Below, piece by piece: positions 33,482-34,642 of a DNA stretch of 64,000 nucleotides. The position numbers and the translations under genes were made by a program. Below the pieces are notes generated by a model. It saw nothing but the letters and a program-made list of their open reading frames with translations. It ran no database searches and had not been told where the DNA came from. Positions within the stretch are counted from its first letter, which is position 1, and each line of letters begins with the position of its first letter. This DNA comes from an uncultured Clostridia bacterium (GTDB lineage Bacteria > Bacillota > Clostridia > TANB77 > CAG-508), in the NCBI GenBank assembly GCA_947630235.1, contig CANRGN010000004.1, forward strand, positions 3,458 through 67,457. Reading direction: 5' to 3'.

Positions 33482-34642
33482 ATGATTGAAGTGAATAAGA
33501 AATTATTGATATTAGGAATTATATTTTTTTTAATAATGAATATTTCAGGAATTTATTCATTACAAAGTGTAGTTGAAGATAAGAAATTTTCTATGGGTTC
33601 TGTTAATGTAGAATTAAAAGAATTTACTATTAATAGTAATAATGAAAAAATTCCATATAATGAAACTAATACCAAAGTAATGCCAGGTGAAGAAATATCA
33701 TTAATTCCCGAAATTTATAATGTAGGAGATGATTGTTATGTAAGAGTAAAAATAGTAGTACAGTATAATGGCGCTGAGCGAGAATTAGATTATAGTAATA
33801 TCATTTCAGAAGACTGGAAATTATATGGAAATTATTATTATTATAATTCAATTTTTCAAAAAGGAGGAGTATTAAAATTATTTGATTCATTAAAAGTGCC
33901 TAGCGATTTATCAAATGAGAAACAGGCTAAAAGTTTTGGAATAAAAATTATAGTAGAAGCAGTACAATCCAAAAACTTTGAGCCAGATTATAATTTAGAA
34001 GATCCATGGAAAGATCAAGAAATTGAAGAAAGTGTAAGTAAACATTTCGCAATAGAAGATTCTGTATTAGGTTTAACAGTAAAATATGAAAATAATAGTA
34101 AACGAGATGTTACTGTATTAGATGGATTTTTAGATGGATTGGAAAAATTAATGCCAGGTGATACATTAAATCAATTAGTAGAAATTGAAAATCATTCAAA
34201 AGAAGATATGGAATATTTTCTTTATATGAACAATGATGGATTAACAGAAAGAGAAAAAGAGTTATTAGGAAAAATAACATTAAAGATTATGGATCAAAAC
34301 AATAATGTTATTTATGAAGGAAATTTATTAGAAGATAAAGCTATTTTTCTTGGAAAATTTGCAGGAGGAGAAAAAAATAATTTAATATTTGAAATAAAAA
34401 TACCGAATGAATTAGATGATGAATTTTCAAGTATAAATATTCATTCAATATGGAGTTTTTTTGCACAAGAAGATAAAAATGATAGGGGAATAACAAAAGA
34501 CAATGCCCTATTTTCCCCAAAAACAGGGGATTATGAATTTGAATTATCTATTGTAATATTCTTTGCTTCTAGTATAGGTTTAATTATAGTATTGTTTTTA
34601 AATAAAAAAGAAAAAGAGAATATGAATAGAAATAAAAAATAA
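33482..34642 (+). CDS. TasA/camelysin-like domain protein (paralogue 5) with an extra C-terminal domain and an SPKTG cell-wall sorting signal
   Basis: RBS aaagggggaa. The N-terminal signal-anchor plus MGSVNVELKEF...VMPGEEISLIPEIYNVGDDCYVRVK matches the paralogue core. The C-terminus is FSPKTGD, then ELSIVIFFASSIGLIIVLFL, then NKKEKENMNRNKK. Confidence 0.8.
   Translation: MIEVNKKLLILGIIFFLIMNISGIYSLQSVVEDKKFSMGSVNVELKEFTINSNNEKIPYNETNTKVMPGEEISLIPEIYNVGDDCYVRVKIVVQYNGAERELDYSNIISEDWKLYGNYYYYNSIFQKGGVLKLFDSLKVPSDLSNEKQAKSFGIKIIVEAVQSKNFEPDYNLEDPWKDQEIEESVSKHFAIEDSVLGLTVKYENNSKRDVTVLDGFLDGLEKLMPGDTLNQLVEIENHSKEDMEYFLYMNNDGLTEREKELLGKITLKIMDQNNNVIYEGNLLEDKAIFLGKFAGGEKNNLIFEIKIPNELDDEFSSINIHSIWSFFAQEDKNDRGITKDNALFSPKTGDYEFELSIVIFFASSIGLIIVLFLNKKEKENMNRNKK

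Follow-up and report, generated by a model that had tools for sequence, protein, structure and literature searches.

The window analysed here is a 64-kb stretch (64,000 nucleotides) of contig CANRGN010000004.1 from an uncultured Clostridia bacterium. Within it lies an open reading frame (ORF; 33482-34642, forward strand) that starts with ATG behind a strong ribosome-binding site (AAAGGGGGAATAA-ATG) and encodes a protein of 386 amino acids (aa), referred to below as the anchor protein. An initial annotation, made from the sequence without database searches, had described it as a TasA-like protein that also carries a sortase sorting signal, and the ORF and the peptides quoted in support (FSMGSVNVELKEF, VMPGEEISLIPEIYNVGDDCYVRVK and VEAVQSKNFEPDY) were all read in the protein. 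An ENA metagenome contig of independent origin (L005) codes for an identical protein. The anchor gene is followed by genes for a second TasA-like protein, a SipW-type signal peptidase and a large secreted protein, here called BIG; the cognate SipW gene thus shares an operon with the anchor gene and lies two genes downstream of it. The full-length AlphaFold2 (AF2) model of the anchor protein was built with 77 homologues and had a predicted local distance difference test score (pLDDT) of 82.4. The features of the operon, together with a second predicted sortase substrate near the start of the window, are as follows, D1 and D2 being the two domains of the anchor protein.

33482-34642, forward strand: anchor gene (AF2 pLDDT 82.4; 108 full-length homologues; 486 clusters at E ≤ 1e-30)
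33482-33559, forward strand: N-terminal signal/transmembrane helix, residues 1-26 (AF2 helix 2-26; ends ISGIYSL)
33560-33595, forward strand: N-terminal segment, residues 27-38, candidate donor strand (AF2 low-confidence segment 26-38; pLDDT <50 in the full-length and D1-only AF2 models)
33596-34009, forward strand: D1, beta-sandwich of the TasA/BsaA superfamily, residues ~39-176 (AF2 beta-sandwich 43-162; hhalign 97.6-99.3%)
34010-34066, forward strand: inter-domain linker, residues ~177-195 (AF2 pLDDT <50 for residues 184-195)
34067-34477, forward strand: D2, second beta-sandwich plus two short helices, residues ~196-332 (AF2 beta-sandwich 197-330; pLDDT mostly >90)
34514-34642, forward strand: predicted cell-wall sorting signal and stop codon: SPKTG(D), 19-residue hydrophobic helix, basic tail NKKEKENMNRNKK
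34652-35302, forward strand: 216-aa TasA-like protein of the M73n family, candidate shaft subunit (AFFTD-type signal; weak Peptidase_M73 (1.2e-3) and TIGR04090 matches)
35335-35829, forward strand: SipW-type signal peptidase I (TIGR02228, 7e-23; SipW model, 3.7e-20; PF10502)
35942-42362, forward strand: BIG, large secreted protein (Flg_new repeats and beta-helix by Pfam; SipW-type signal)
233-4780, forward strand: 1515-aa protein without Pfam domain, second predicted substrate of a class-B-type sortase (SPPTG, transmembrane segment, basic tail)

Sorting signal and domains of the anchor protein

The C-terminus of the anchor protein reads FSPKTGD-YEFE-LSIVIFFASSIGLIIVLFL-NKKEKENMNRNKK, in which the hydrophobic segment has 19 residues with a mean Kyte-Doolittle value of 2.8 and the basic tail has Lys or Arg at 6 of its 13 residues. 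The protein therefore has the layout of a sortase substrate, with an N-terminal signal and a C-terminal pentapeptide, hydrophobic segment and positive tail. In the full-length model a disordered stretch (343-350) surrounds the SPKTG motif and is followed by a C-terminal helix (351-385). The SPKTG signal named in the initial annotation was borne out in all its parts (motif, 19-residue hydrophobic helix and tail with six Lys/Arg), each of which is conserved in the family, and so was the SPPTG motif that it had pointed out in the protein ending at 4780, where a transmembrane segment and a basic tail follow. The (S/P)PxTG pattern is the proven motif of the Clostridioides difficile sortase SrtB, for which an assay peptide, SDSPKTGDN, contained the hexapeptide SPKTGD (PMC4155245). 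C. difficile SrtB cleaves SPKTG, a motif that CD2537 and CD3392 require for their attachment to the wall (PMC4155245, PMC5569036), and NPKTG is the motif of Bacillus anthracis SrtB (PMC11987632).

A word-index search detected 108 full-length homologues of 350-440 aa with 29-43% identity, all of them unnamed and without a Pfam domain; RefSeq annotates the family as 'hypothetical protein'. An exhaustive profile search gave 486 clusters (at 50% identity) at E ≤ 1e-30 and 2361 at E ≤ 1e-10. The best relative among the GTDB representative genomes was 38% identical, no plasmid homologue was found, and an exact 40-mer search for the contig in the JGI metagenomes gave no match. When 77 homologues (29-43% identity) were aligned, T348 of the motif was invariant and P346 and D350 were at least 90% conserved, as were K114 within the sequence WxKxGDYYYY and S22, G23 and Y25 of the N-terminal signal. 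An xPxTG-type signal followed by a transmembrane segment and a basic tail was present in 126 of 140 further cluster representatives, the remaining 14, without a standard signal, being mostly fragments or near-variants; altogether the signal occurs in approximately 90% of more than 200 relatives. The most frequent motif was NPKTG, followed by SPKTG, NPQTG, NPNTG and SPQTG. The Lachnospiraceae proteins have the motif (S/P/T)VKTG. Whichever the motif, a hydrophobic helix and a basic tail always came after it. Judged from these alignments, the sorting signal is a defining trait of the anchor family and its conservation goes far beyond chance.

At the other end of the protein, the sequence ISGIY(S/A)L aligns with the GxxAYFTD/AYFTD region of the TasA-like paralogues. 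By this alignment, ISGIYSL at the end of the helix corresponds to the SipW-type 'GxxAYFTD' signal in the form that it takes in this family, and one homologue bears the IMG label 'SipW-like signal peptide'.

The N-terminal half of the anchor protein gave BLASTP matches to three proteins of the window: the 216-aa neighbour (E = 3e-10), a 173-aa BsaA-like protein (14495-15016; E = 2e-7) and a paralogue at 23275-23919 (E = 1e-28). The likeness to the window's paralogues that had been noticed earlier is thus real. We then compared D1 with alignments of three neighbouring families (BsaA-like, M73b and M73n) drawn from 86 related loci. In hhalign, D1 aligned over nearly its whole length with all three, matching the BsaA-like family with 99.3% probability (E 1.6e-20), the M73b (PF12389) family with 98.2% (E 3e-14) and the M73n family with 97.6%. 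Pfam PF12389 (TasA/camelysin; Peptidase_M73) was matched by 24 of 24 M73b members (best 6e-11), a Blautia member of which is named 'TasA family protein' in RefSeq, and the 173-aa BsaA-like protein matches NCBIfam TIGR04090 (BsaA family) at 1e-12.

Foldseek with the full-length model returned generic tandem Ig-like and beta-sandwich proteins only, with template modelling (TM) scores <0.3, among them transglutaminase barrels, RbmA, integrin legs, CupB6 and WxLIP. Since these generic matches reflected the two-domain geometry, D1 was re-modelled alone; the model had a pLDDT of 86.7 and a predicted TM-score (pTM) of 0.80, with its first 11 residues disordered. Its best match among 350,542 PDB chains was 8aur_A, the cryo-electron microscopy structure of the TasA fibre (probability 0.98), with generic Ig-like folds ranking closely behind. 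On the strength of the profile comparison with the neighbouring families we accept D1 as a member of the TasA/BsaA superfamily, for which the fold comparison is supportive and not decisive.

D2, for which Pfam gave no match, is the 'extra domain' of the initial annotation. With narrow profiles the hhalign alignment of D1 and D2 was limited to a PGD..N motif ('PGD..x.I.N'). With broad profiles, which included the Lachnospiraceae homologues, the two domains aligned colinearly over 122 columns (probability 62%, E 7.5e-5), which include the first and last strands, the PGD-N turn and the 'IP.(E/D)L.N' loop. The extra domain is real, in that it is modelled as a beta-sandwich with a pLDDT mostly above 90; with moderate confidence, the alignment suggests that it is probably a diverged duplicate of the TasA-like domain D1 and not an unrelated addition.

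Cassettes, sortase genes and lock residues

The 86 related loci contained two types of cassette, and the ~210-aa M73n-type subunit had the same position in every cassette. Type 1, to which the window belongs, has the order [class B sortase] - anchor - ~210-aa TasA-like protein - SipW - large Flg_new/lectin-like protein. Its hosts are low-GC gut and rumen metagenome-assembled genomes labelled Clostridia, Bacilli, Erysipelotrichaceae or 'Tenericutes', and the genes that flank it vary from locus to locus. Type 2 has the order SipW - PF12389 protein - BsaA-like protein - anchor and was found in Blautia, Fusicatenibacter, Dorea, Ruminococcus and Oscillospiraceae. Examples from cultured human-gut Lachnospiraceae are Blautia sp. 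MSJ-19 (locus L039, 8252-13329) and Fusicatenibacter saccharivorans (locus L047), where genes for SipW, a TasA family protein, a BsaA-like protein and an anchor with an xVKTGD motif are followed by one for a 711-aa secreted protein. The cluster of the Fusicatenibacter anchor has 3945 members and was seen on at least 1000 contigs, and the anchors are all annotated as hypothetical.

In 14 of the 27 type-1 loci whose upstream sequence was long enough to be assessed, a sortase gene preceded the anchor gene at a distance of 16-75 bp. Nine anchor-linked sortases were scanned, five from directly upstream of type-1 anchors and four from type-2 loci (1.5-8 kb away), and all nine were of class B (TIGR03064, 1e-37 to 1e-61; TLSTC motif). 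An unusual signal, NPxTW(D), in which Trp replaces Gly, was present in the 10 loci listed below, in all 10 of which a class B sortase gene immediately precedes that of the anchor, and in none of 17 loci without an adjacent sortase (Fisher p = 1.5e-4, uncorrected for phylogeny).

NPxTW(D) loci: L006, L011, L012, L015, L017, L018, L021, L024, L025, L027

Since NPxTW is confined to loci with an adjacent sortase, a dedicated enzyme-substrate pair is suggested. This co-variation is the strongest evidence obtained here that the motif would be a genuine sortase signal, and NPxTW is possibly a new sortase B specificity.

In the BsaA fibre of Clostridium perfringens, strand exchange is followed by an intermolecular isopeptide bond between Asn35 and Lys74, catalysed by Glu56 (PMC11580942). 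The residues at these positions (the Asn-Glu-Lys, or N-E-K, triad) differ among the families of the related loci as follows.

M73b family: N39/E52/K69, invariant (24/24)
BsaA-like family: N36/E49/K65, invariant (35/35)
M73n family: triad in 34/35, the sole exception being the 216-aa protein of the window
Type-1 anchors: Asn 6/33, Glu 25/33, Lys 0/33, with a variable donor position
Type-2 (Lachnospiraceae) anchors: N 47/54, E 50/54, K 47/54

The type-1 anchors parallel the situation in C. perfringens, where the paralogue without the triad, BsaB, is also the one with LPXTG in most strains.

The large protein at the end of the type-1 cassette is of a different kind. Only the 45 N-terminal residues of BIG resemble a TasA-like protein, in its signal and first strand (hhalign 84% and 61%). 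In the orthologues a SipW-type signal precedes GIYGYF..VNxL[ST][IV], and a conserved lectin-like module forms the end; neither in BIG nor in the orthologues was a TasA domain or a C-terminal anchor or sorting signal detected. Having no acceptor domain, BIG would be able to donate a strand and not to accept one, which makes it a candidate tip adhesin on sequence grounds.

The candidate base subunit and its alternatives

We favour, with a probability of roughly 0.55, the reading that the anchor gene product is the wall-anchored base subunit of a donor-strand fibre of the TasA/BsaA type. A role as cell-wall anchor of such a fibre had been proposed in the initial annotation, and it is still the best reading of the locus, the gene sharing its operon with those for SipW and a TasA-like subunit, and with a sortase gene adjacent in relatives. 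The reading builds on the domain anatomy, the homology of D1, the conserved signal and cassette and the adjacency of class B sortase genes in relatives, from which we infer sortase processing in this organism, the formation and polarity of a fibre and the roles of D2 and BIG. The precursor would be exported through the Sec pathway, and the SipW whose gene lies two genes downstream would cleave off its SipW-type signal. The SPKTG signal, hydrophobic helix and basic tail would retain the protein in the membrane before the sortase step, in which a class B sortase would cut between T and G and join Thr to peptidoglycan. D2 would be a stalk, D1 would become part of the fibre through beta-strand complementation, its partner being the 216-aa TasA-like subunit encoded next to it, and BIG, with a donor-like N-terminus and neither acceptor nor anchor, would cap the distal end as an adhesin. 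Subunits of the TasA fibre are joined in such a way that subunit n+1 is filled by the N-terminal strand of subunit n, the first strand presumably coming from TapA (PMC9674648, PMC10151520). By analogy with the TasA fibre, the polarity would run from the adhesin strand through the shaft subunits to the last shaft strand, which would occupy the D1 groove of the anchor. The disorder of ~11 N-terminal residues in the monomer models makes donor-strand exchange through the N-terminus of the anchor a candidate mechanism. Since the type-1 anchor is without the lock Asn and Lys, its link to the fibre would be non-covalent in this clade.

Several observations weigh against this reading. The anchor protein had no match in Pfam or NCBIfam (PF12389 and TIGR04090 included), even at E ≤ 10, and PDB profile searches with four family profiles (A1, A3, A4 and A5) gave nothing meaningful. 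The Foldseek match of D1 to 8aur_A was weak (E 4.8e-3, query-normalised TM-score 0.42), and no match was below 1e-3. The TasA assignment made at the outset therefore holds as superfamily membership by hhalign (97.6-99.3%), reached indirectly, with no direct Pfam or NCBIfam match and with the E value of 4.8e-3 for 8AUR. At the lock positions the anchor protein of the window has K34, E47 and L74 and is thus without Asn and Lys. The 216-aa protein has K36, S49, S52, Q70 and A72 where its family has N36, E49, W52, K70 and P72; the lock could have been lost in this organism or the gene could be drifting, and the change could be a sign of decay and not of a functioning fibre. The BIG gene is apparently split into two overlapping ORFs (35795-40615 and 40566-42362, forward strand; overlap 50 nt). 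No sortase gene or remnant was found in the window by a scan for the TLxTC motif, BLASTP of the ORFs or tblastn with six class B sortases at E ≤ 10, which gave noise only. In favour of the reading, the second SPxTG protein of the window (SPPTG, to 4780) points to a sortase elsewhere in the genome; we infer a sortase in this organism only from that protein and from the canonical SPKTGD. Against it, from known systems, some SPxTG proteins of C. difficile escape sortase processing (PMC5569036), the BsaA oligomers of C. perfringens strain 13 are membrane-anchored and not wall-anchored, and C. perfringens srtB is dispensable for BsaA polymerisation (PMC11580942, PMC7395162).

Three other explanations of the locus were weighed. 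The missing donor Asn and acceptor Lys of the anchor clade would also be expected of a stand-alone wall-anchored surface protein or adhesin, made of TasA-like beta-sandwiches outside any polymer, whose neighbours merely share SipW export. The C. perfringens BsaB, which lacks the triad, is not built into BsaA oligomers (PMC11580942), and the full-length model's Foldseek neighbours (RbmA, CupB6, WxLIP and other generic tandem Ig-like proteins of the adhesin or matrix kind) agree with this explanation as well. However, the gene order with the TasA-like subunit is strictly kept across many lineages, the Lachnospiraceae homologues retain the N-E-K triad (47-50 of 54), which is sensible only with strand exchange, and the monomer models show a disordered N-terminal segment, like that of donor-strand subunits. 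We regard a stand-alone protein as rather unlikely. It is unlikely, too, that the C-terminal segment is an uncleaved membrane anchor only, with no matching sortase in the genome or with the system decaying. This explanation draws on the missing sortase in the window, on the loss of the triad from the 216-aa shaft paralogue, on the frameshifted BIG gene, the in-frame stop in the anchor-type paralogue and the split spoIIE gene, and on CD0183 and CD2768 of C. difficile, which bear SPxTG yet are unprocessed (PMC5569036). Against it, the motif is the canonical SPKTGD and the second SPPTG protein suggests a resident sortase; moreover, the anchor ORF is intact and identical in an independent sample, and errors of assembly may account for the frameshifts.

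Pilus loci typically encode a sortase of their own. In half of the close relatives a class B sortase gene immediately precedes the anchor gene, with NPxTW co-varying, and K114 (WxKxGDYYYY), the would-be nucleophile, is at least 90% conserved; this could indicate a pilin polymerised covalently by the class B sortase, as in the class-B-sortase pili of Streptococcus pyogenes, so that the enzyme would assemble the fibre and not just fix it to the wall. Yet the anchor protein matched no pilin, CnaB/Cna_B, IgG-rev or SpaA model, SpaA domains in the window being confined to an unrelated 2692-aa protein (15054-23132), and many loci, that of the window included, lack a dedicated sortase. A self-polymerising subunit of the TasA/BsaA type is already part of the cassette, and polymerisation in C. 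perfringens is independent of srtB (PMC7395162). Such a pilin is very unlikely in our view.

As a tentative extension of the favoured base-subunit reading, the two-domain family as a whole may form the sortase-B-dependent base of SipW/TasA-type fibres across gut Firmicutes, with the triad of the Lachnospiraceae giving a fully covalent chain and with a dedicated NPxTW sortase B in some lineages; we consider this possible and clearly less probable than the role proposed for the window. The covalent chain would then run from peptidoglycan through the sortase-made Thr bond to the anchor, and from there through the Asn-Lys isopeptide to the shaft and the adhesin. If true, this would be a third route to a covalent Gram-positive pilus, in which strand exchange and a self-catalysed lock polymerise the fibre and the sortase solely anchors it.

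The initial annotation had correctly stated that Bacillus uses TapA and that sortase-built pili use isopeptide-linked pilins, and had presented a sortase-anchored TasA-family subunit as a merger of the two principles. That merger has already been proposed. Most C. perfringens strains have a bsaB-like TasA-family gene with LPXTG beside srtB, for which anchoring of BsaA to peptidoglycan was speculated, and TasA/BsaA genes often adjoin genes for LPxTG proteins and sortases (PMC11580942). A preprint on AbpX describes LPXTG anchors in TasA-superfamily clusters, for which AlphaFold 3 predicts donor-strand oligomers with the fibril subunit (10.64898/2026.01.04.697558). Both proposals are predictions or speculation. 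Since two preprints already propose LPXTG-anchored subunits of the TasA superfamily, the system described here is a variant and not a new principle, and for the window itself the gain is mainly one of annotation. What appears to be new is the large unannotated two-domain family with its class-B signals, the dedicated sortase with NPxTW and the split into clades with and without the lock.

Among the closest known systems is that of the LPXTG-bearing BsaB-like protein of C. perfringens (ATCC 13124 and most strains; srtB / sipW-bsaA-bsaB-bsaB'-bsaC; PMC11580942, PMC7395162). This protein is likewise a TasA/BsaA paralogue with a sorting signal, its operon includes SipW and a polymerising subunit, a class B sortase gene adjoins, and it lacks the N-E-K triad. 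In contrast to the window's cassette, sipW comes first there and no two-domain architecture is described; the window's family has (N/S)PxTG or xVKTG motifs and a large lectin-like protein in place of the VWA protein BsaC. This comparison was made by description and not by sequence. The same holds for the LPXTG anchors of the AbpX clusters (Clostridium amylolyticum A0A1M6GRE1), which are similarly encoded beside a TasA-superfamily subunit with sortases nearby (10.64898/2026.01.04.697558) but belong to another branch of the superfamily and have prediction-only support. TapA of Bacillus subtilis (tapA-sipW-tasA) has a role comparable to that proposed here for the anchor protein: it is an accessory of the SipW-dependent TasA fibre, which it presumably tethers to the cell, engaging TasA by strand complementation (PMC9674648, PMC10151520). 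However, TapA has neither a sorting signal nor a TasA-like acceptor domain and donates the first strand, so that BIG is closer to it in mechanism than the anchor protein is; the TapA model TIGR04087 was not matched by the anchor protein.

Basal pilins of the SpaB and FctB type are also minor subunits with a sorting signal, fixing a tip-shaft-base fibre to peptidoglycan, and their loci encode a dedicated sortase. Their fibres differ in that sortase-made Thr-Lys bonds join CnaB/IgG-rev pilins, whereas the anchor system has a TasA-like fold and strand exchange is expected, with a BsaA-type Asn-Lys lock added in other clades. The SrtB substrates of C. difficile (CD2537, CD3392, CD2831 and others) have an identical SPKTG(D) motif, hydrophobic helix and basic tail, and their wall linkage by a class B sortase is proven (PMC4155245, PMC5569036, PMC4591827); their passenger domains are unrelated, and none is known to be TasA-like or SipW-dependent.

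The attachment of TasA-type fibres outside Bacillus is unsettled: the fibres of C. perfringens strain 13 seem to be tethered to the membrane, and no function is known for the sortase encoded next to them. The anchor family would offer a concrete answer, a sortase-sorted TasA-like subunit in hundreds of lineages. Some of its hosts, for instance Fusicatenibacter saccharivorans and Blautia spp., are commensals of the human gut that can be cultivated and are very abundant, and a module of anchor, shaft and lectin-like tip could underlie the adhesion and aggregation of gut Firmicutes. The clades with and without the lock residues, and those with and without a dedicated sortase B and NPxTW, constitute a natural experiment.

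Further genes of the window and the operon leader

A second group of TasA-family genes is located upstream of the operon, at 13829-15016 and 24078-24767 (forward strand). It encodes a 221-aa protein (PF12389, 1.7e-6), the 173-aa BsaA-like protein (14495-15016; TIGR04090, 1e-12) and a 229-aa protein, all three with the N-E-K lock residues. These genes flank that of the 2692-aa SpaA/LRR surface protein (15054-23132), which has no sorting signal, and no SipW gene was found within the cluster (13829-24767). Two other assignments were considered in this region and rejected: the ORFs at 23.2-24.8 kb are further TasA-like paralogues and not ribosomal protein genes, and 14495-15016 encodes the BsaA-like protein and not a second signal peptidase.

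The paralogue at 23275-23919 (forward strand) is of the anchor type and consists of D1 only, with an AYFTD signal and the full N/E/K triad. Its sequence has an in-frame TAA at 23563-23565 and stops just past the linker, without D2 and the sorting signal. Judged from this arrangement, the gene is probably a pseudogene left over from a type-2 cassette. The spoIIE gene is split into adjacent ORFs in different frames (5006-5614 and 5619-7439, forward strand). Like the split of BIG, this is an apparent frameshift, either real or an assembly error.

The anchor gene is separated from the preceding rpoB-rpoC genes by an AT-rich spacer of 865 bp (32618-33481). The rpoC gene is followed by a terminator-like hairpin at 32731-32781, upstream of the promoter-like site of the operon, and a scan of the leader against Rfam for a riboswitch or other RNA element matched no family. 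The best promoter-like site was as follows.

33090-33118, forward strand: TTTACA-17-TATAAT with an extended TG, a consensus match only

The leader also contains a perfect 17-nt inverted repeat (33239-33255 / 33271-33287) and, at 33366-33410, a mini-ORF of 14 codons with a strong ribosome-binding site.

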